A model generated the notes under the pieces. That model worked only from the letters and a program-made list of their open reading frames with translations, was not told where the DNA came from and ran no database searches. DNA of 24,303 nucleotides from a virus (taxonomy: Duplodnaviria > Caudoviricetes): positions 1 to 24,303 of the IMG/VR virus record IMGVR_UViG_3300009496_000071. One strand, written 5' to 3'. The position numbers were made by a program, and so were the translations under genes. Below, piece after piece: positions 515 through 19,249 of the stretch; position 1 is the first letter of the stretch; each line of letters starts with the position of its first letter.

Positions 515-1102
515 ATGAAACATTTACACTGTTATATTGTTGAACCAATAAATGGTAGATACAATAACAAAAGTGAAAATCTTATATTAAATACATCGAT
601 TGAAGATCATAAATTTGTAAATAGAGAGGGTATTATAAAAGAACTACCTATTAATGTAGAAAATAATTATTTGCAAGTAAATGATAAAGTAATTGTACAT
701 CACAATGTATTTAGAAGATTTTATGATGTTCGCGGGAAAGAAAAAAACAGTGGTAGTTATTTTGAAGAAAATAAATACTTCTGTTATGACGATCAAATAT
801 TTCTTTACAAAAGAAATAATAAATGGCACACACCACCGGGATACTGTTTTGTAAAACCAATACATAGCTTAAATAAATTTACAGAAGACAAAGAAGAGCC
901 GTTGACAGGTGTTTTAAAGCACCTAGGAGACGATCTAAGAAGCTTTGGCTTACAAGATAATGACTTAATAGGTTTTACACCAAATAGCGAATATGAGTTC
1001 GTTATAGATAACGAAAAATTATATAGAGTACCACTAAATTCAATCTCAATTAAATATGAACGTAAAGGACCTGAAGTCGAATATAATCCAAGCTGGATAT
1101 AA
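515..1102 (+). CDS. GroES/Cpn10-like co-chaperonin, apparently two tandem GroES-like units (195 aa)
   Basis: Two GroES-like patterns: YIVEP...GIIKELP...LQVNDKVIV and CFVKP...GVLKHLG...GLQDNDLIGF...EFVIDNEKLYRV; located next to head genes. Confidence 0.55.
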   Translation: MKHLHCYIVEPINGRYNNKSENLILNTSIEDHKFVNREGIIKELPINVENNYLQVNDKVIVHHNVFRRFYDVRGKEKNSGSYFEENKYFCYDDQIFLYKRNNKWHTPPGYCFVKPIHSLNKFTEDKEEPLTGVLKHLGDDLRSFGLQDNDLIGFTPNSEYEFVIDNEKLYRVPLNSISIKYERKGPEVEYNPSWI

Positions 1103-1331: not shown

Positions 1332-3538
1332 TGTACGAGCAATATCTAGTAAAAACAATAACACCTATTAAGCCTAATGTTATAAAGCGAATGAATCGCT
1401 ATAACAAATGGGATTATGGCTATAATAAGGAATATGATATAATAGTCATAAGCAAGGATGGAAAGATTGGCGAGATAATAAAGATTCAAAATTTGTGTAT
1501 AGCATTACCAGAGCAGCCTAAAGACATTAGTAAAAAAACTGATAGATGGACTCCGGCAGAATACCCAAAAGAATTAAATCAAATAAAAAGTATATTTGAT
1601 TGGGAAAGCTATCCAGAAACATTTAAATCCAATTGGTATGAATATATTGATAAAGAGTTTACAAAACGTGAAGAAGGTCATTGGTTCAATAATAAAGGTA
1701 ATGCTACTTATATTACTGGTACTCACTACATGTACTTGCAGTGGACTAAAATTGACGTTGGGCGACCCGATTTTAGAGAAGCCAACAGATTATTTTTTAT
1801 CTTCTGGGAAGCTTGCAAAGCTGATAAACGATGCTACGGACTTTGCTACCTCAAAAACAGACGATCAGGCTTTAGTTTTATGGCGTCAGGGGAGACCGTT
1901 AACCAAGCAACAATATCATCCGATTCAAGATTTGGAATACTTTCTAAGACTGGAGCGGATGCAAAAAAGATGTTTACTGACAAAGTCGTGCCAATATCGG
2001 TTAACTATCCCTTCTTCTTTAAGCCAATACAAGACGGAATGGACAGGCCAAAATCAGAACTCGCCTATAGGGTCCCCGCTTCAAAGCTTACCAAAAAGAG
2101 TATTACAAAGACCAGTGAAAAGCAAATACTAGAGGGATTAGATACAACAATAGACTGGAAAAATACAGGTGACAACAGTTATGATGGTGAAAAATTAAGA
2201 CTGTTAGTTCACGATGAATCAGGAAAATGGGAAAGACCTGATAATATATTAAACAATTGGAGGGTAACAAAAACTACTTTACGATTAGGTAGCAGAATTA
2301 TTGGAAAGTGTATGATGGGTTCAACGTCAAATGCTTTAGAAAAAGGTGGCGGAAACTTTAAAAAACTGTACAATGACTCAGATGTTACCAGAAGAAATAA
2401 AAATGGACAGACTAGCTCGGGACTATATAGTTTGTTCATACCTATGGAATGGAACTACGAAGGATACATTGATTCTTATGGATACCCTGTATTTGATACT
2501 CCAGAAGAACCCATACTTGGCAATGACGGAGATTACATTGAAACAGGTGTAATTAATTTTTGGGAAAACGAAGTAGATGGATTAAAACATGATTCAGATG
2601 GCTTAAATGAATATTATAGACAATTCCCAAGAACAGAAGAGCATGCATTTAGAGACGAAGCAAAAAATAGTATATTTAATTTAACAAAAATATATGAGCA
2701 AATAGATTATAACGAAGACCTTGTAAGACAAGGAGTTATAACTAAAGGTTCATTTTCTTGGGAAAATGGTATTAAAGATAGTAAGGTTATTTTTAATCCA
2801 AACCCATCTGGTAGGTTTTTAGTTTCATGGGTTCCTCCTAAGAACCTGCAAAACAACGTAATAGTAAAGAATGGAGTCAAACAACCAGGTAATGAGCATA
2901 TGGGTGCTTTTGGTTGTGATTCATATGATATATCAGGTACAACTGATGGAGTAGGATCTAAAGGATCGTTACACGGGCTTACTAAGTTCAGTATGGAAGA
3001 TGCTCCAACAAGCACATTTTTTTTAGAATATGTAGCAAGACCTCAAACCGCTGAAATATTTTTTGAAGATATGTTAATGGCTATTATATTTTATGGTATG
3101 CCAATATTATGTGAAAATAATAAGCCCCGTTTATTATATCATATTAGGAGAAGAGGTTATAGAGGGTTTTCAATGAATAGACCGGATAAAGTCTGGAACA
3201 AACTATCTGTAACAGAAAAAGAAATTGGGGGAATACCAAATACCTCTGAAGATATTAAACAAGCTCATGCTGCTGCAATTGAAACTTACATAGAAAAACA
3301 TGTAGGTGTTAATGAAGATGGTGGTGGTAATATATATTTTAATAGAACATTAAACGATTGGGCTAAATTTGATATAAATAAAAGAACAAAGTTTGATGCA
3401 ACAATAAGCTCAGGATTAGCTATAATGGCCTGTAATAGACATTTATATCATCCTAAGCCAAAATACGAAAAGTCTAATTTAGACTTAAAAATTTCAAGAT
3501 ATAACAATAAAGGTACGCATTCGCAAATAATACAATAA
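1331..3538 (+). CDS. terL: Terminase large subunit (735 aa)
   Basis: Walker A-like YLKNRRSGFS, Walker B LLVHDESGK, coupling motif GST, RNase H-like nuclease motif GAFGCDSYD and C-terminal FDATIS; immediately upstream of portal. Confidence 0.93.
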   Translation: MYEQYLVKTITPIKPNVIKRMNRYNKWDYGYNKEYDIIVISKDGKIGEIIKIQNLCIALPEQPKDISKKTDRWTPAEYPKELNQIKSIFDWESYPETFKSNWYEYIDKEFTKREEGHWFNNKGNATYITGTHYMYLQWTKIDVGRPDFREANRLFFIFWEACKADKRCYGLCYLKNRRSGFSFMASGETVNQATISSDSRFGILSKTGADAKKMFTDKVVPISVNYPFFFKPIQDGMDRPKSELAYRVPASKLTKKSITKTSEKQILEGLDTTIDWKNTGDNSYDGEKLRLLVHDESGKWERPDNILNNWRVTKTTLRLGSRIIGKCMMGSTSNALEKGGGNFKKLYNDSDVTRRNKNGQTSSGLYSLFIPMEWNYEGYIDSYGYPVFDTPEEPILGNDGDYIETGVINFWENEVDGLKHDSDGLNEYYRQFPRTEEHAFRDEAKNSIFNLTKIYEQIDYNEDLVRQGVITKGSFSWENGIKDSKVIFNPNPSGRFLVSWVPPKNLQNNVIVKNGVKQPGNEHMGAFGCDSYDISGTTDGVGSKGSLHGLTKFSMEDAPTSTFFLEYVARPQTAEIFFEDMLMAIIFYGMPILCENNKPRLLYHIRRRGYRGFSMNRPDKVWNKLSVTEKEIGGIPNTSEDIKQAHAAAIETYIEKHVGVNEDGGGNIYFNRTLNDWAKFDINKRTKFDATISSGLAIMACNRHLYHPKPKYEKSNLDLKISRYNNKGTHSQIIQ
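1668..2132 (+). CDS. Putative overprinted lipoprotein in the +1 frame of terL (GTG start 1668; alternative ATG 1638)
   Basis: Frame is stop-free from 1587 to 2129; N-terminus MKKVIGSIIKVMLLILLVLTTC is a basic-hydrophobic-Cys signal peptidase II pattern; terL codons here shift to C-ending forms. Confidence 0.5.
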   Translation: MKKVIGSIIKVMLLILLVLTTCTCSGLKLTLGDPILEKPTDYFLSSGKLAKLINDATDFATSKTDDQALVLWRQGRPLTKQQYHPIQDLEYFLRLERMQKRCLLTKSCQYRLTIPSSLSQYKTEWTGQNQNSPIGSPLQSLPKRVLQRPVKSKY

Positions 3539-3539
3539 T

Positions 3540-5963
3540 ATGGCCGAATCAATTTTAAAAAGTTCATTTCCTAGTCAAATTGCTAGTGATGCTGAAAAAG
3601 CAAGCTCAGAGTATGGGGCAAAAGTAGCAAGAGCTATTGAACACGAGTGGTTTAAAAGAGATAGTGGTGCAACACGTTTTTATTCAAATAGAGATGAGTT
3701 TCACAGATTAAGATTATATGCAAGAGGCGAGCAGTCTGTTAAAAAATATAAAGATGAGTTGTCTATTAACGGCGATTTGTCTTATCTTAATTTAGACTGG
3801 AAGCCTGTACCTATTATACCTAAGTTTGTAGATATTGTGGTAAATGGCATGTCTGACAGATTATATGATATTAAAGCGTACTCACAAGATAGTTCTAGTA
3901 TAAAAAAAAGAACAGAATACGTTGAGTCTGTGTTGGCTGATATGCAAACAAGAGCAATATCAGATCAAATACAGCAGGAGCTTGGAATTAATGTGTATAG
4001 CAATGATCCTGCAACATTACCTCACAACGAAGAAGAGTTGGCTTTACGAATGCAATTAGAATACAAACAATCTATAGAAATTGCACAGGAGCAGGCTATT
4101 CACGTTGTTTTAAATACTAATAAATATGACCTATTAAAAAGACGTATTAATTATGATTTAACTGTAATTGGTATTGGAGCGACAAAAAATACATTTAATA
4201 AAGCTGAGGGAATTAAACTAGAGTATGTTGACCCCGCTAATTTAGTATATTCATATACAGATTCACCTTATTTTGATGATATATATTATATTGGAGAAAT
4301 AAAAAGTGTTACATTAAATGAATTAAAAACACAATTTCCTGATTTAGATAATGAAGAACTTCAAAAGCTTAGTAAGCAAGGAAGTCAAACTTCTGCTGCT
4401 CATAATAGGTTTATAAATGAGGACAGTACATTAGATGCAAACACAATACAAGTTTTATATTTTAATTTTAAAACATATAAGAACGAAGTATTTAAAATAA
4501 AGAAAACAGCAACAGGTGCTGATAAAGCTTTAGCTAAAAATGATCAATTTAATCCTCCTAAGGATAAAAGAGCTGATTTTGAAAAAGTTTCTAGGTCTGT
4601 TGAAGTTATATATGATGGTGCGTTTGTAATTGGTGTTGGAAAATTACTTAAGTGGGAAATGGCTAAAAATATGACGCGCCCAAAAAGTGATACGTCTAAA
4701 GCTATGTTTAATTATAGCGTTGTAGCACCAAGAATATACAAAGGAAGAATTGAATCTTTAGTTAGTAGAATTACAAGTTTTGCTGATATGATTCAATTAA
4801 CACATTTAAAACTACAGCAAGTATTGTCAAGAATGATTCCTGATGGAGTCTATTTAGACGCTGATGGCTTGGCTGAAATAGATTTAGGAAATGGAACAAA
4901 TTACAATCCTCAAGAAGCATTAAATATGTTTTTCCAAACAGGTAGTGTAATTGGTAGATCTTTAACAGCCGACGGAGACATGAATGCGGGCAGAATGCCT
5001 ATTCAAGAGCTAACCTCTAATGGTGGTAATAATAAAATAAATTCTCTTATAAGCACTTATAATTATTATCTACAGATGATACGTGATGTTAGCGGATTAA
5101 ACGAAGCAAGAGATGGTAGTAAGCCAGATGCTAACGCTTTAGTTGGTATTCAAAAAATGGCTGCAGCTAATTCTAACACAGCTACTAGGCATATATTACA
5201 AGGAAGTATGTATTTAACTGTTAAAACAGCAGAAGCTATTAGTTTGCGTATATCCGATATATTAGAATTTTCACCAACTAGAGAATCTTTTATATCTAGT
5301 ATAGGTAGATTTAATGTAGCAACATTAGAAGAAGTAGCCAATATGCATATGCATGACTTTGGCATTTTTATTGAGTTAGAGCCAGACGCAGAAGAAAAGC
5401 AGCTGCTTGAAAATAACATACAACAAGCTCTTTCTAGAGACCAAATATATCTTGAGGATGCTATTGATATTAGAGAAGTTAAAAATTTAAAACTAGCTAA
5501 TCAATTATTAAAAGTACGTAGACGTAAAAAATTAGAGCAAGATCAAAAAATTTCACAAGCTAATATTCAAGCTCAAGCTAATGCTAATTCACAAAACACT
5601 CAGGTAGCTGCTCAAATGGAAGTTCAAAAGAACGAAGCTCTTACTGCACAAAAAGTAGAGTTAATACAAATAGAGTCAGAGCTTGAAATGCAAAAAATGC
5701 AAACTGAAAAAGAACTTAAGAAAGAACTTATGAAATATGAGTTTGATCTTAATATTGCTATTAAGCAACAAGACAATGATCTTTTAGATAAAAAAGAAAA
5801 ATATAAAGAAGATCGGAAAGATGAAAGAACTAGAATACAAGCTGGTCAACAATCTAAACTAATTGAGCAAAGAAAAGATCGAAAAGGAGAGCAAGAGTTT
5901 GAATCCGCTGGTAATGATACCATGGGTAGCGGATTTAATTTAGAAATGTTTGAACCAAGATAA
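3540..5963 (+). CDS. Portal protein (807 aa)
   Basis: Follows TerL; size and motifs (LDWKPVPIIPKFVDIVVNG, IRDVSGLNEARDGS) and a Gln/Glu/Lys-rich coiled-coil C-terminal barrel fit crAss-like/P22-type portals. Confidence 0.88.
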   Translation: MAESILKSSFPSQIASDAEKASSEYGAKVARAIEHEWFKRDSGATRFYSNRDEFHRLRLYARGEQSVKKYKDELSINGDLSYLNLDWKPVPIIPKFVDIVVNGMSDRLYDIKAYSQDSSSIKKRTEYVESVLADMQTRAISDQIQQELGINVYSNDPATLPHNEEELALRMQLEYKQSIEIAQEQAIHVVLNTNKYDLLKRRINYDLTVIGIGATKNTFNKAEGIKLEYVDPANLVYSYTDSPYFDDIYYIGEIKSVTLNELKTQFPDLDNEELQKLSKQGSQTSAAHNRFINEDSTLDANTIQVLYFNFKTYKNEVFKIKKTATGADKALAKNDQFNPPKDKRADFEKVSRSVEVIYDGAFVIGVGKLLKWEMAKNMTRPKSDTSKAMFNYSVVAPRIYKGRIESLVSRITSFADMIQLTHLKLQQVLSRMIPDGVYLDADGLAEIDLGNGTNYNPQEALNMFFQTGSVIGRSLTADGDMNAGRMPIQELTSNGGNNKINSLISTYNYYLQMIRDVSGLNEARDGSKPDANALVGIQKMAAANSNTATRHILQGSMYLTVKTAEAISLRISDILEFSPTRESFISSIGRFNVATLEEVANMHMHDFGIFIELEPDAEEKQLLENNIQQALSRDQIYLEDAIDIREVKNLKLANQLLKVRRRKKLEQDQKISQANIQAQANANSQNTQVAAQMEVQKNEALTAQKVELIQIESELEMQKMQTEKELKKELMKYEFDLNIAIKQQDNDLLDKKEKYKEDRKDERTRIQAGQQSKLIEQRKDRKGEQEFESAGNDTMGSGFNLEMFEPR

Positions 5964-14200: not shown

Positions 14201-17200
14201 TCTTTAGAATTTGCAGACGCAGAGGGTAATAATTTACCTTTAAAAGAGGAGGTGGTGATACCACAGCAGCACGCAAAAGAAAAAGTTACATTAAATATAG
14301 TTGAATCGGTTGACGATGAAAAAGCTTTTTTTACTAAGAATCCAGCAATATTCGAAACAGAACCATTAGAATCTATTACAGAGCTTGATCTTTATTTTGA
14401 AACAGAAAAAGCATATCCAATTAGTGAACATGGCAAAGTGCAATCATTAAAATGGTATAATACTTTTTGTTTTAAAAATGGGGTTGAATCTAATAGAATT
14501 AGAGATGATTTTAATAATATTTATATAAGCACTGGTATTAAGGCTTCTGCTACTTTATCAGAACAATTTAAAGAAGAACACAAGTTTAATGGATTAATTT
14601 GGTCTGGAATTGTTAATTCAAGAACAGGCATTAACAAATCAAATGAGTTTAATCAAGCTAATACAATAACTAAAGATTTATTACCATCATATGGTAGTAT
14701 TCAATTACTAGACGCATGGGACGATCAAATAATTATTCTTTGTGAAGATAAAATTGTTAGAGCTTATGCTGATAAGGATATATTATATAATGCAGATGGT
14801 AATCCAAACGTAGTAGCAACTAATAGAGTAATTGGAGCAATACAGCCTTATTCAGGAGAATATGGTATATCAAACAATCCAGAGTCTTATGCTAAATATG
14901 GCTTTAGAGCTTATTTTACTGATAAAATGCGTGGAGAAGTGTTAAGGTTATCAAGAGATGGTCTTACTCCTATTAGTAAATTAAATATGTCTTCTTTTTT
15001 TAAAGATAGGTTTTTTAGCAAAGGCTGTTATAACTCAAATACAGAGTTAACTGATATTCTTGGATCTTACGATAATTACAATGATTTGTATAACGTTTCT
15101 TTTGCAAATCAAGATACGGTTTGTTTTGATGAAAATGTTAGCGGGTGGGTAACACGAAAATCTTTTGTTCCAGAAAATGCAATTTCCTTAAATAATAAGT
15201 ATTATACATTTGTAAATGGAGAACTTTGGGAACAAGACACTAAGGATGTTCCTTATAATAATTTTTATGATACACAATATAATTCTTTAGTTGAGCTAGA
15301 AATTAATGATAACCCTTCAGTTATTAAAAACTATAAAACACTAAGTTATGAAGGAAGCTCGGGATGGACAGCAAATATTGTAACTGATCAGCAAAAATCA
15401 AATGATTTTGCGTTTATTCCTAAAGAAAACAAATACTTTACTAATATTCCAGGAGAAGTAAGAACTATTGAAAATGTTGACCCTAAAAATTTTAACTTTC
15501 AAGGGGTTGGGCAAGCTTTATCTATAAGCGCAATTAGTGCAGCAAATAATACAAACATTACTTTTGATATATCTCCTAGTGAGACTACATCGTATAAATC
15601 ATCGCCCAAGATTTTAACAAATACTCCTGGAGCAAAACTGCCTTCAACTGTTGATATAAAAATATTTTCAAAAAATAACTATACTTTAGATGCAAGCAAG
15701 TTTAATTTAAAAAATGTTATTGCAACTAATGATGGTGAAGACGTTATTTTAACTTACACACATGGTTTAAAAATTCAACCTTCTGCAAATAAAAGTATAA
15801 ACTTGGAATTATGCAAAATTAATTTTGCATCTAAAAAAGATATATCAACAACAGGTAACTATGTTTTGAGTGGTAATAATTATACAACAACCAAGGGCAG
15901 CGGAAATTATTCTGTTATTGGTAATACTAACGTAATAAAAAATATTACCTCAAGAACAATAACTCCTGCTGATGGTTGGACAATAACAGAGGCTGATATT
16001 GCTATTGACAATCCTAATATATTAATAACAAAACAAACAAATAAAGACGGGAGTATAACGTTATTTGAAAAAATAATTATAGGGGAAGGTAGTGAAACAA
16101 ATATAAATTATACAATAACAGTAAACCCTAAAGAAGAAGTAGTCAAAACCAAAACAATACTTTACTACGATTTAGATGAGTCTAACGTAACACCTAATAA
16201 CAATATTAGATTATTAGAAGTTTATGGTGATCCTGGTGCTGAATTTGCTTATATATTAACGGATACTTCTGGAGAAATTAAAAAAGAAATTAAACTTACA
16301 ATGCCCAATTCTGGTGTTTATGAGGACACTTTAATTTTTCCAACCGGTACAACAGACGAAACGTTTAATGTTAAAATAAGCTCAGGAGACGGGACGGTTT
16401 TAAGTTCAGATATTGTAGATGCGGTAATATACAGAAAAGCTAAAGCAGCACTATCTTTTACTTTCATATCACAATTTAATGATGTTGTAAGTAACAAGGT
16501 AACGCTAAAAGGTTTTACAGGTGATGTAATTAGATCCTCTTTTTCTCAAATTATACAACTTCCTACAGCGGTTTACACGCTTCAAAGACAACCCCAAAAA
16601 TCTGATATTGTTTTTGATTTAGCTGGAGATAATATTAATATTTATAATCTTAATGCAGTATTAGATGATGTTGCTGATACTTTGACCATTACAGGTGAAA
16701 TTGAAGTTGACAATATAATTGAAAACAATAAAGGTATATTAACCTTAGATAGTATTATAAATGAACAAATAACATTAACTATTGATTTTTCAAATATAAC
16801 AACCAACTCATTAGCTACAACAAATTATTCATGGGATCCAAATCCAACAACACATACAATAACAGGTGGTAAAAAACTACCTGCTGAAATATTAAATAGT
16901 TATAATTTTACTTTAACTCCAACGGCAGGTTATAGATTTTTAAATTCTATAACCAATGAAAGTTTTGTTTTAGTCAATGCTTCTAATAATAATGTGTTGA
17001 GTACTTATGCAAATAATAATGAATTAACATTAAGTATTGATGATGATGGATTAAAAATAGGTTTTGATACATTAAAATTCAATCTTCCTGATTCAACACA
17101 AACAATAACTATAAGACCAACAGCGCAAATATCAGAATTAATTACTATTGACTCTTCATATAGCTTATTATACGTTCCTTTAGATAGTGAGGATAGACTA

Positions 17201-19249
17201 TTCGCAAATAAACTTATACTAGGTGAGCTAACGGATGCTTCTAATCAAAACTTTTTATTCCAAAAAATATTTAAAATTGATAGAAAAGTTTCTCAAAATG
17301 AAGATTACACTAAAATATTTTCAACAACTGGTCACACAATTAATTTATTAGATAACGAGCTTTCTTTAGCTACGGCGGGAACATACACGGATATAAATGG
17401 TAATAGTAAAACAATAACTAGTAACATAGAAATTAATAATAATAAAACGGAATTAACTTTAAATATACTTGCCAATATAAATGCTAATCCTGAAAAGGCT
17501 TTAGGTAGAGTAGAGTTTGATTTAGCAACAGAAGAGTCATATCAAGTTATTGAATTGCAAAAAGGTGATTGTTTCTCTACATCATCTTCGTTCAATGCTA
17601 GATTGTTTAATATTGATCCTTTAAATGCAGACCCTGCCATAGGTGGTTATTTAACAAAATACACCTCATCTGAAGAAGGAGTAAGTAATGGGGAAGTAGA
17701 ATTAGAAAATACTTATAAAATAGTTGGAACAGGTTATTTAATTAAAACAACAAAATCGGATCCATTTAGTGTGGATGTAATAAAAGACATTGAAGAATGT
17801 AATCTTGATCAAGACGGTGATGGTGTTAATGATGATTTAGACGCATTCCCATTTGATCCTACTGAATCTTCTGATAATGATAAAGATGGGATAGGAGATA
17901 ATGCAGATCCAGATGATGATAATGACGGATGGTCTGATGCAGAAGAAAAAGCATATGGTACAGACCCTAAGGATCCTAATAATAAACCTTTAGATACAGA
18001 TGGTGATGGAACGACTGATTCATTTGACACAGATGATGACAATGATGGGTGGAGTGATACAAAAGAAGGCACATATGGCACAGACCCACAGGATGCAAAC
18101 AGTAAACCTTTAGACACAGACGGTGATGGAAATCCAGATTCAGCTGACACGGATGATGATGGGGATGGAATTAGCGATATTGATGAAATAGCCGCGGGAA
18201 GTGATCCACTCGATGCTAATAGTAAGCCACCCGCGGACACAGATGGAGATGGGATTATTGATAGCGAAGACTTAGACCCAACTAGGCCAAGTATAAGCAG
18301 TGCAAATGATTTTTCATTTAACACTGACCATTATAGTGATAGTAGTTACAGCCCTAGAAGCAATGGTCAAGTAAGATATTACTACAGAGGGGCTAGTTCT
18401 GGGTATATAATACCAAGATTAAACAGGTTGCCTCAAGGCATAGGTATTAGTCTTTTAACTTGGAAGGCTAGAACGGTAAATGCACCTTGGGTAAATATTA
18501 AAAACACAACAGGACAAGTTATCGAAGATGATAAAATTCAAGATAAAAAAATATTCACAGAAGGTGATAGTGTTAATTTTAATATTTCTGAATTAACTTC
18601 TGAAGACGATAGAGAAGGCAAAATTGCCGTAGATTTTTATTATCAAAATAAATTTATTCTAACAATAGAAGAAGACATAGACCAAAAAGCTGCTGTTTTT
18701 ACCCCTACCGCTTTAACAAGTGGAGAGGATCTACCCACTCCAACTTCAGCAAATATAGATCAAAGTTCTAAAGCATGCCAGGCTATTTTAAGACCAAGTG
18801 CTGGAGGTAAAACTTTTCCTCAAATATTAGAATATGATTTAGGATCAGGCACTGGAACTATAAATATGTATTTTAACGCAGTGCTTAAACCTGATAGATT
18901 TGTTGTTGTTTATGATGGTGAAATAAAAATTGACACTGGGTATATAACAAGACATAGAGACGGTTATGCACAAGGTGACATAAATCTTGCTTTAGATGCA
19001 AAAAGTATTACTAGAACAAATGTAAGATCCCAAGTTTCTGCTTCGGGTAATAGTGCAAGACCTATTGTGGATGGGGTAAAAAGAAATATTGCTGGAACAG
19101 ATGTTCATTGGACATGGGAAAAAAGATCAAGTGTTTCAAAAGCATATGTATATGTTTATGCTCCACTAACAGGAACAAACTGGGAGGTAGCAATGTCTTG
19201 TCCTAATGAAGACATAGAGCTTACTTTTTACAAAGCCACATCGGGATAA
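11219..19249 (+). CDS. Tail stabilisation (muzzle/nozzle) protein with long C-terminal adhesin-like extension (2676 aa)
   Basis: N-terminus FQSGRMNKDFDERLLPNGEYRDALNI, LFWTDNLNPPRKIN, NGVESNRIRDDFN, YGISNNPES motifs of crAss-like stabilisation proteins; core appears to end near FQGVG (about 15511), followed by beta-rich repeats, TSP3-like repeats and a BACON-like domain. Confidence 0.8.
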   Translation: MAELKHTFQSGRMNKDFDERLLPNGEYRDALNIQISSSEGSDVGAIENILGNKKLSSINLENAKTIGVIAHTLKDKIYWFICADNIDGIYEFDQQQGTILPILIDKKITLSKVLTSINVESNSDNELVLDNILTTELKELCGALPLNNDDEVLVNNNLDLTCADPYIKLSIPKNSVLRKENNKYVFKNVEYNGQSYGKIDLSFVYSTDSVLNFSKSNLITGVNIIDDMLFWTDNLNPPRKINIPTFKKFSNTVYPNTPGIFNTQTVVVFDKKDTNGNVTQGNRTFTEEDIKVAKKAPLFAPSLLLEKFLGNGIYEINKKINFYQQSSAGVAGQGNKVIGVGDDLTLSGLTTLPSWSVGNSIRLTGDEISGNGELNSIGTLKSIGVDSAVITITSQDNIPTINDYSVKLELIVKDPIYELEFVRFGYRWKYKDGEYSALSPFSESAFIPGEFDYDGKEAFNKGMQNNIRKITLSNFDLGDDNIEEIEILFKETRNQNIYTLQAVKRLGFLNNYEITKKQIHSVLPNDQLLRSWDNVPKVAKAQEVTANRIIYGNYKQNYDIYNEPIFDIYLGARSDNFKRSIKSNRPYQVGVVYMDSDNRHSPVLSNQTGTVFVDKNQSVFENCFNISLKNNPPAWAKYFKYYIKDTSNEYYNLTADKFYHDTENGYSYISFPSTERNKITDKTYLLLKKQHGANKAVLNTNNRYKVIDIFNEPPDFVSEIKKQVYSLSNIQFGAGLQIETPKTTKADNLTPTENSTKIVILAANNGDPDNTPLGISNTDKEQILKNRYIQFQIGGQTSRPYKIKKLNYNNLLVDDLELTIDESFGNDVNFIYNADDTLKDGISINILEVKNEKGAKQFDGRFFIKIRTNATLLNSEVSSNIVGEYQNVDSYQLDGNHAYKNNRQRSKNNADENPQYPIWVARGGLKTNAFTLAGINGKFSIQFEEATVNQDESIIKKFSVGTKLQFGTDETIYEISKAVFTKLELNNKKEVSKVSLEFADAEGNNLPLKEEVVIPQQHAKEKVTLNIVESVDDEKAFFTKNPAIFETEPLESITELDLYFETEKAYPISEHGKVQSLKWYNTFCFKNGVESNRIRDDFNNIYISTGIKASATLSEQFKEEHKFNGLIWSGIVNSRTGINKSNEFNQANTITKDLLPSYGSIQLLDAWDDQIIILCEDKIVRAYADKDILYNADGNPNVVATNRVIGAIQPYSGEYGISNNPESYAKYGFRAYFTDKMRGEVLRLSRDGLTPISKLNMSSFFKDRFFSKGCYNSNTELTDILGSYDNYNDLYNVSFANQDTVCFDENVSGWVTRKSFVPENAISLNNKYYTFVNGELWEQDTKDVPYNNFYDTQYNSLVELEINDNPSVIKNYKTLSYEGSSGWTANIVTDQQKSNDFAFIPKENKYFTNIPGEVRTIENVDPKNFNFQGVGQALSISAISAANNTNITFDISPSETTSYKSSPKILTNTPGAKLPSTVDIKIFSKNNYTLDASKFNLKNVIATNDGEDVILTYTHGLKIQPSANKSINLELCKINFASKKDISTTGNYVLSGNNYTTTKGSGNYSVIGNTNVIKNITSRTITPADGWTITEADIAIDNPNILITKQTNKDGSITLFEKIIIGEGSETNINYTITVNPKEEVVKTKTILYYDLDESNVTPNNNIRLLEVYGDPGAEFAYILTDTSGEIKKEIKLTMPNSGVYEDTLIFPTGTTDETFNVKISSGDGTVLSSDIVDAVIYRKAKAALSFTFISQFNDVVSNKVTLKGFTGDVIRSSFSQIIQLPTAVYTLQRQPQKSDIVFDLAGDNINIYNLNAVLDDVADTLTITGEIEVDNIIENNKGILTLDSIINEQITLTIDFSNITTNSLATTNYSWDPNPTTHTITGGKKLPAEILNSYNFTLTPTAGYRFLNSITNESFVLVNASNNNVLSTYANNNELTLSIDDDGLKIGFDTLKFNLPDSTQTITIRPTAQISELITIDSSYSLLYVPLDSEDRLFANKLILGELTDASNQNFLFQKIFKIDRKVSQNEDYTKIFSTTGHTINLLDNELSLATAGTYTDINGNSKTITSNIEINNNKTELTLNILANINANPEKALGRVEFDLATEESYQVIELQKGDCFSTSSSFNARLFNIDPLNADPAIGGYLTKYTSSEEGVSNGEVELENTYKIVGTGYLIKTTKSDPFSVDVIKDIEECNLDQDGDGVNDDLDAFPFDPTESSDNDKDGIGDNADPDDDNDGWSDAEEKAYGTDPKDPNNKPLDTDGDGTTDSFDTDDDNDGWSDTKEGTYGTDPQDANSKPLDTDGDGNPDSADTDDDGDGISDIDEIAAGSDPLDANSKPPADTDGDGIIDSEDLDPTRPSISSANDFSFNTDHYSDSSYSPRSNGQVRYYYRGASSGYIIPRLNRLPQGIGISLLTWKARTVNAPWVNIKNTTGQVIEDDKIQDKKIFTEGDSVNFNISELTSEDDREGKIAVDFYYQNKFILTIEEDIDQKAAVFTPTALTSGEDLPTPTSANIDQSSKACQAILRPSAGGKTFPQILEYDLGSGTGTINMYFNAVLKPDRFVVVYDGEIKIDTGYITRHRDGYAQGDINLALDAKSITRTNVRSQVSASGNSARPIVDGVKRNIAGTDVHWTWEKRSSVSKAYVYVYAPLTGTNWEVAMSCPNEDIELTFYKATSG
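17807..18280 (+). repeat. Degenerate 120-nt (40-aa) tandem repeat encoding bacterial thrombospondin type 3-like Ca2+-binding units
   Basis: Recurrent DxDGDG / DDDNDGWSD..E...GTDP.D; AAACCTTTAGAYACAGAYGGTGATGGA at 17984 and 18104 (period 120 nt). Confidence 0.85.

Follow-up and report, generated by a model that had tools for sequence, protein, structure and literature searches.

Several phage genes are known that lie out of frame within another gene. Lambda Rz1, nested in the +1 frame of Rz, is a small protein that is sent to the envelope and has an N-terminal leader and a cysteine; T7 18.7, nested in 18.5, is an embedded o-spanin; and the lysis gene E of PhiX174 overprints gene D. The terminase gene 19 of T7 contains two short out-of-frame open reading frames (ORFs), 19.2 and 19.3, whose status is unknown. 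We analysed a comparable arrangement in terL, the gene of the terminase large subunit, in a stretch of 24,303 nucleotides of viral DNA (Caudoviricetes; IMG/VR record IMGVR_UViG_3300009496_000071, positions 1 to 24,303), hereafter the window. The original prediction had placed a lipoprotein gene in the +1 frame of terL, as a possible o-spanin-like or u-spanin-like lysis factor or superinfection-exclusion lipoprotein. We find that this frame is kept open by selection in diverged relatives and is therefore most likely a real overprinted coding gene nested in terL, a conclusion that we hold with high confidence. Given a real gene, an exported or membrane-anchored product is likely, and we lean towards the two statements taken together, leaving any step in lysis aside.

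The hidden gene resembles Rz1 in several respects: it is wholly nested in the +1 frame of a phage gene, it is of the kind that gene callers often miss, as they do o-spanins, and its product would be small, bound for the envelope and equipped with a leader and a cysteine near the N-terminus, and is predicted to be unstructured and to have periplasmic cysteine residues. It differs in that its host gene encodes an essential terminase ATPase and not a partner i-spanin, it lies outside the lysis cassette, its lipobox is non-canonical, no partner was identified, and the mature part of its product is longer (about 130-220 residues) and hypervariable. The location by which o-spanins are recognised, in, overlapping or beside an i-spanin gene of the lysis cassette, does not apply to it, since it is embedded in terL. 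PhiX174 E is likewise a +1 gene in an essential morphogenesis gene, with a conserved N-terminal membrane segment and a basic, sequence-tolerant C-terminal part, but E, which is not cleaved, brings about lysis as a single gene in a tiny single-stranded DNA phage and has no sequence similarity to the hidden protein, whereas the relatives of the window phage have endolysin and holin genes of their own. T7 19.2 and 19.3 share the out-of-frame nesting in a terminase large subunit gene; what sets the present case apart is the evidence, from many lineages, of conservation, of recoded codons and of a leader that resembles a signal. The basic protein gp28 of PhiKT, a phage without spanins, is proposed to disrupt the outer membrane (bioRxiv 10.1101/515445). 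The hidden protein is also basic, but its charge is not selected and it has a predicted export leader. According to the excerpted text of a spanin survey, 182 two-component spanins are embedded, 228 overlapped and 118 separated, 196 o-spanins had been left unannotated, and 91 of 677 phages had no spanin (PMC6139136). For Bacteroidota phages, spanins are described as rarely identified in the excerpted text of PMC8776804, which names a peptidase as the sole lysis gene of Gundel and lists no spanin for Calle.

The open frame itself is as first described: it runs for 181 sense codons, from 1587 to 2129, and ends at TAG 2130-2132 (Table 1). The rest of terL, which has 735 codons in all, contains 51 stops in the +1 frame. 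The window is AT-rich (27-39% GC per kilobase), and the claim that so long an open frame is unusual in such DNA was upheld by shuffling. None of 10,000 shuffles (5,000 synonymous ones within terL and 5,000 redraws from window-wide codon usage) reached 181 codons; the maxima were 171 and 173, the means 59 and 63, and the interval 1587-2129 was never open in either set. Analytically, the interval has 14 codon pairs at risk of forming a stop, from which 6.8 stops are expected, and the probability of avoiding all of them is 2.4e-5. Of the C-ending codons said to avoid stops, CTC AAA, GTC GTG and CTC GCC do so, and GTC CCC involves no at-risk pair.

We then compared the frame across 80 related loci with TerL proteins 72-84% identical to that of the window, taken from a group whose size is put at about 14,000 stored stretches. 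Stops were scored in a core of 140 codons (1668-2087 of the window). The stop-free state was found to be shared in part: 43 of the 80 loci (open loci) lack +1 stops in the core, 36 (closed loci) have two to eight, and one was too short for scoring. Outside the interval, the density of +1 stops is equal in open and closed loci (0.055-0.10). The openness is specific to the +1 frame: among open representatives the core has on average 0.0 stops in the +1 frame, 12.5 in the +2 frame and 5.8-12.4 in the reverse frames, none of which is stop-free. Open genes that diverge most from one another are saturated at synonymous sites outside the interval (0.52 observed, 0.51 by chance). An unselected frame would have acquired stops, as the closed genes did.

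With the interval left out of the TerL tree, the open state requires 13 changes, at least six of which are forced by well-supported branches; a tree with 115 rows requires 14. The hidden frame has 6-11 stops in five annotated relatives with TerL 32-63% identical, and is closed in all 10 records of an outgroup clade. It is thus younger than terL. Its distribution suggests that it arose inside this phage group and was then lost many times; recombination of the 5' half of terL is a possible alternative. Four closed records (L220, L223, L224 and G119, the latter also L504) retain the hydrophobic run and the Cys-x-Cys described below, with one to three stops further on, and look like recent decay of the hidden gene.

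What selection holds can be read from the terL codons. We compared 34 open and 35 closed representatives, each less than 75% identical in codons to the others of its own set. At conserved TerL residues, synonymous codon identity is higher in open than in closed genes over positions 1690-1810. Over terL codons 115-155 it is 0.652 in open and 0.516 in closed genes (+0.136; z 3.2 against 85 windows outside the ORF; z values are from 40-codon windows). The choices concern specific third bases. In terL codons 124-130 the third base is T, occasionally C, in 23-34 of the 34 open genes, so that the +1 frame reads Leu-Leu-Ile-Leu-Leu-Val-Leu, whereas A is common there in closed genes (up to 27 of 35) and gives Gln, a stop or His. 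Next to this run, Tyr134 is TAC in 31 of 34 open and 11 of 35 closed genes, which yields Thr instead of Ile; Leu135 is TTG in 32 and 12, respectively, which yields the second cysteine; and Gln136 is CAG in 28 and 10, which yields Ser. Gly143 is the rare GGG in 24 open genes and two closed ones. The closed relatives encode the same TerL residues without the codon choices of the open genes. A second stretch of raised synonymous identity lies outside the hidden gene, at 2400-2480 (about terL codons 360-380), where values are 0.64-0.77 in open and 0.51-0.65 in closed genes.

The predicted protein begins with a basic segment and a hydrophobic run, followed by a Cys-Thr-Cys-Ser-Gly motif, about 25 conserved residues and a variable tail (Table 1). 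Across the open genes, the hypervariable part, predicted to be disordered, spans 100-190 residues. The original prediction started it at GTG 1668. The translation from there, MKKVIGSIIKVMLLILLVLTTCTCSG, is as written, but this start is not conserved: relatives have Glu, Val, Ala or Gly at the position, according to which codon TerL uses for Arg. Further upstream, an in-frame ATG is aligned with 1638 in 29 of 44 open genes and lies at 1650/1653 in nine more, 38 of 44 in total. Homologues end at several discrete stops and have 145-255 residues. AlphaFold2, run with 39 sequences, predicts a single helix, residues 2-35, with a predicted local distance difference test (pLDDT) score of 61-78; pLDDT is below 50 elsewhere, with a mean of 46. 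The hydrophobic-cysteine pattern had been suspected to follow in part from the TerL sequence, and this is correct for the first cysteine (TGT 1731-1733), which is imposed by TerL Met-Tyr, and not for the second (TGC 1737-1739).

Table 1. Positions in the window of the hidden gene, its predicted parts and the surrounding genes.
Feature	Positions	Strand	Remarks
Stop-to-stop open +1 frame	1587..2132	+	181 sense codons plus TAG
Predicted coding sequence of hidden gene	1638..2132	+	ATG 1638, 164 residues plus stop; putative start
GTG, alternative start	1668..1670	+	21-residue leader before Cys
Basic n-region, residues 1-20	1638..1697	+	four Lys; from translation and alignment
Hydrophobic h-region VMLLILLVLTT, residues 21-31	1698..1730	+	held by T-ending terL codons
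Cys-Thr-Cys-Ser-Gly motif	1731..1745	+	Cys32 forced by TerL Met-Tyr; Cys34 selected
Conserved segment after motif	1746..1811	+	consensus PKLMLGxQTLGKQTDYSxYSGKL; raised synonymous codon identity in open genes
Hypervariable hydrophilic tail	1812..2129	+	predicted disordered; open, sequence not conserved
terL, terminase large subunit, 735 residues	1331..3538	+	phrog_6681, E-value 7.2e-171, residues 23-734 aligned; host gene of the overlap
TerL KNRRSGFS, P-loop-like motif	1853..1876	+	overlapped by tail of hidden gene; from sequence only
GroES-like co-chaperonin gene	515-1102	+	directly upstream of terL
Portal gene	3540-5963		virion protein genes also in window
Virion structural protein, 2676 residues	11219-19249	+	phrog_14478

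The leader was first read as a signal peptidase II signal. Its conserved basic n-region, h-region and predicted helix agree with a signal of some kind; the lipobox does not follow the consensus [LVI][ASTVI][GAS]C given in the excerpted text of PMC6139136. Among the 34 open representatives, the residue before Cys32 is Thr in 18, Ile in 12 and Leu in four, and that before Cys34 is Thr in 31 and Ile in three. A small residue is impossible there because of the Tyr-Met-Tyr of TerL. The small residues Thr-Cys-Ser-Gly after the hydrophobic run would suit signal peptidase I equally well. For these two reasons we term the protein Sec-targeted or signal-anchored and regard its lipidation as unproven. 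In each of the 44 proteins, the 15-residue segment of highest hydropathy lies upstream of the cysteine motif, and the tails of open genes are less hydrophobic than the same frame of closed ones. On these data, which include no direct search for a second peak near the C-terminus, there is no C-terminal hydrophobic segment, and the u-spanin proposed as one possibility is excluded for that reason.

A number of observations weigh against a gene for an exported protein. The canonical lipobox is absent from all 34 representatives. The start codon is uncertain, and translation is predicted from the DNA alone. Close relatives show no slowing of synonymous change in the core (0.82 vs 0.87 and 0.89 vs 0.93, from few pairs). 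The tail (about 1812-2280) has no site-specific conservation; over 1826-2280, codon identity is 0.42 in open and 0.58 in closed genes (z -4.0). Synonymous suppression, the constraint expected of an overprinted gene, is thus seen for the first 58 residues or so and neither for the tail nor between close pairs. What does differ in the tail, in favour of a real gene, is composition. From closed to open genes, T at third positions goes down from 0.41 to 0.27 and C up from 0.11 to 0.22, and in the +1 residues the hydrophobic fraction falls from 0.41 to 0.27 and that of Ser, Thr, Pro and Ala together rises from 0.13 to 0.24. These comparisons show that all that is preserved in the predicted tail is the open frame and a reduced hydrophobicity. 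Lys plus Arg make up 0.145 of the +1 residues in open and 0.142 in closed genes, and the basic isoelectric point of 9-12 is consequently a by-product of the frame. For the same reason we rejected a cationic disruptor as the selected trait.

Under the reading of a real gene, translation would begin at an ATG within the late terL message, and the leader would direct the protein to the Sec pathway. It could then stay as an anchor with the N-terminus inside and the C-terminus outside, or undergo cleavage, either close to Thr-Cys-Ser by signal peptidase I or in a non-canonical way at Cys34. Either way, the disordered hydrophilic tail would be placed in the periplasm. The most likely job of such a product, itself weakly supported, would be an accessory, o-spanin-like role at the outer membrane during lysis. 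We propose a lysis-stage role because the product would be late and envelope-directed, and we do so tentatively, judging it from the predicted features as possible and somewhat doubtful. A bolder version is doubtful: that a protein born de novo within the ATPase domain of the essential packaging motor now serves abundant marine flavobacterial phages as a non-canonical, Cys-anchored outer-membrane lysis subunit, and was lost repeatedly when conventional lysis lipoproteins were acquired. In that version the disordered tail need only be long, open and hydrophilic.

Two lipoprotein families of the same phage group bear on this role. Genome G002 (100% complete, hidden frame closed) has a 145-residue lipoprotein with VSSC at its lipobox, its gene overlapped at the 3' end by that of a small type II membrane protein, and an M15 endolysin gene that spans the record ends. 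G003, also closed, has a 154-residue lipoprotein with VLSC beside holin-like genes. The two lipoproteins are homologous neither to each other nor to the hidden protein. They resemble the latter in small size, phage group and an N-terminal leader with a cysteine, and differ from it in their canonical lipobox, their position beside the endolysin and the 3'-overlapping type II membrane protein gene. In 18 of the 25 G002-type loci (L129-L153, e.g., G002 68104-68800), a gene for a 96-residue type II membrane protein overlaps the 3' end of the canonical lipoprotein gene; in 17 of the 25, the lipoprotein gene adjoins the M15 endolysin gene (within 3 kb). We regard this pair as a candidate two-component spanin in which the lipoprotein gene comes first.

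The hidden frame was closed in all 27 scorable carriers of these families in our first sample (18 G002-type, 9 G003-type; a 28th record, L231, was left out, having only 26 core codons). Ten of the 27 belong to the outgroup clade, and within the ingroup the contrast between open loci and closed loci with a lipoprotein corresponds to 10 changes on the tree. Over all records with a lipoprotein of either type, the hidden frame is broken in 31 of 32, which, like the place of the G002-type gene beside the endolysin, favours a link to lysis. Three of the four records with an apparently decaying frame carry the G002-type lipoprotein. Conversely, ten long open records have no homologue of either type and no convincing canonical lipoprotein; they include the complete genome G102, the nearest complete relative, with a TerL 87% identical to that of the window.

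Samples with less bias argue against a function in lysis and against replacement. We anchored a second sample on two endolysin queries, which gave 60 long records, 59 with TerL and 56 scorable. Of the scorable ones, 3 of 27 open and 6 of 29 closed records have an ORF for a canonical lipoprotein no more than 3 kb from the endolysin. Two nearly complete or complete open genomes have both elements: G136 (98% complete), with a 200-codon hidden frame and an LSGC lipoprotein gene 200 nucleotides after the endolysin, which is the sole open record of this sample with a G002-type homologue; and G128 (100% complete), with a 228-codon hidden frame and a VGC lipoprotein gene 168 nucleotides from the endolysin. 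In a census of 23 genomes at least 91% complete, hand-chosen and with the closed genomes picked partly for having no lipoprotein near the endolysin, a lipoprotein-like ORF was found in 4 of 10 open and 8 of 13 closed genomes, which leaves five closed genomes with neither the hidden gene nor such an ORF. Furthermore, the lysis cluster of G102 lies 11 kb upstream of terL; it consists of an endolysin, a basic 110-residue protein, a 93-residue protein with an N-terminal transmembrane segment (TM93) and a phrog_3427 holin. Searches of Pfam, PHROGs and the ESM Atlas with the hidden protein also gave no family match: one of 39 members matched a PHROG at an E-value of 0.006, and the best Atlas score, 0.81, was not above chance. 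We rejected strict mutual exclusivity between the hidden gene and lysis-cassette lipoproteins, as G128 and G136 have both and the census shows none. The family-specific anticorrelation stands, exclusivity fails, and a replacement of the lysis lipoprotein is accordingly not established.

The window itself says little on this point. It was correctly stated to contain no other visible lysis gene, which is uninformative because the record covers about 43% of a genome and the endolysin and holin genes of the relatives lie elsewhere. A scan of 34 upstream regions for lipoproteins gave one match and is uninformative too, since the lysis genes are more distant. In G001 (16625-17038) and 26 further records, a holin-like gene (phrog_3427) precedes terL by 1.2-2 kb; in G001 it is just past the point homologous to the start of the window.

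The rival that survives best accepts a real exported or anchored protein and gives it a task other than lysis, such as superinfection exclusion, receptor masking, antiholin-like timing of lysis or another effect on the host surface. The 13-14 changes on the tree are what one expects of an accessory gene, the hypervariable tail fits any such function, and the lack of exclusivity in near-complete genomes, with an endolysin-adjacent lipoprotein co-occurring in G128 and G136, agrees with it. Against these stand the anticorrelation with two lysis-cassette lipoprotein families (31 of 32 closed), the lack of similarity to known exclusion or antiholin families in Pfam and PHROGs, and the location in a late gene, which would disfavour an early exclusion function. 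We consider this rival doubtful, if worth keeping in mind.

The second rival holds that the frame is untranslated and open because of base composition, TerL codon choice or a DNA or RNA element. The tail without site-specific conservation and the knowledge of the frame from sequence alone would fit this view, as does a raised GC content at third codon positions (GC3) across the interval. In the terL of the window, GC3 is 0.39 in the core and 0.22 outside, and shuffling confined to the core, which is conservative since it retains the local codon usage, gives a probability of 0.053 for no stops. Open loci in general have a core GC3 mostly of 0.35-0.50, against 0.18-0.33 outside; closed loci lack this rise. 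Yet open loci with a GC3 of 0.27-0.34 have no stops and closed loci at 0.37 have three to five, so GC3 alone does not explain the openness. In the same core-confined shuffles of the open loci (44 genes, from many lineages), 2.0-5.0 stops are expected, with a median probability of no stops of 0.003 and a largest value of 0.12. Composition also does not account for openness in the +1 frame only, for seven consecutive third-position T that spell a hydrophobic run, or for the fixed rare GGG, when closed relatives encode the same TerL residues without those codons. As for an RNA element, the interval has no Rfam match and an ordinary folding energy (z -0.63). An untranslated frame is thus very unlikely.

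Least credible of all is a programmed +1 frameshift that would fuse the N-terminus of TerL to the +1 peptide, as in 41 of 146 profile matches that join both frames (e.g., TerL residues 1-101 and then the hidden protein), because nearly all genes have a +1 stop a short way upstream (1584, or 1647 and then directly ATG 1650), the ATG before the hydrophobic run is retained in 38 of 44, the joins are scattered as in assembly errors, and a leader that resembles a signal would be pointless inside a fusion protein.

These matches come from a profile search of 1.84 billion representatives, which gave 151 matches, 146 of them retrieved and examined. The 41 that also match TerL in frame 0 (examples are P0024, P0029, P0045 and P0065) are probably chimeras produced by assembly frameshift errors. 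A word-index search with the hidden protein gave 19 unnamed proteins; neither the word-index nor the profile matches included a free-standing homologue or family. A scan for the motifs of the hidden protein led to an estimate of about 9,100 stored stretches that contain them, and tblastn confirmed 574 of the 600 examined. No publication on a terL-nested gene of these phages emerged from full-text literature searches.

The hidden frame thus marks an annotation gap: gene callers miss it, and database entries consist only of unnamed ORF calls and frame chimeras. Its carriers are phages of Flavobacteriia-type hosts, which are important in marine blooms. It would be a clear case of overprinting in a large double-stranded DNA phage and in a highly conserved enzyme domain, where a single data set displays recoding of the host gene, a conserved leader, a tail held by composition only and many independent losses. 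This makes it a natural system for studying the origin of new proteins and the minimal constraints that keep them. If the tentative role in lysis were true, the gene would supply part of the outer-membrane step that is missing for Bacteroidota phages.

The host phage, which is marine and uncultured, can be placed by its TerL. The nearest cultured relatives are podoviruses of Flavobacteriia: the Flavobacterium phages vB_FspP_elemo (46% identity), the Cellulophaga phages phi38:1 and phi46:3 (36-37%) and the Tenacibaculum phage Gundel_1 (32%). The TerL of an uncultured complete genome, MW202828, is 63% identical. The window is the complete IMG/VR record, its completeness being the CheckV estimate given above. 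The hidden gene had been described as lying over the Walker A region of terL. Its tail does overlap KNRRSGFS, which we take to be the Walker A motif from its similarity to the deviant Walker A of lambda gpA; this placement remains presumptive because a comparison of TerL with solved structures (PDB) and Pfam gave no match to confirm it.

Two further features of the region deserve mention. The 2676-residue virion protein has calcium-binding-like, Asp-rich repeats near 17800-18330, over whose DTDGDG-like sequence an antisense ORF of 171 residues runs (17809-18324, minus strand). It has no counterpart by tblastn in 13 related records and is probably a compositional artefact, as the complement of Asp-rich repeats has few stops. 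Relatives of the window (G001, G102 and G003) encode a GroEL-like chaperonin (phrog_5725) and a second GroES-like protein.

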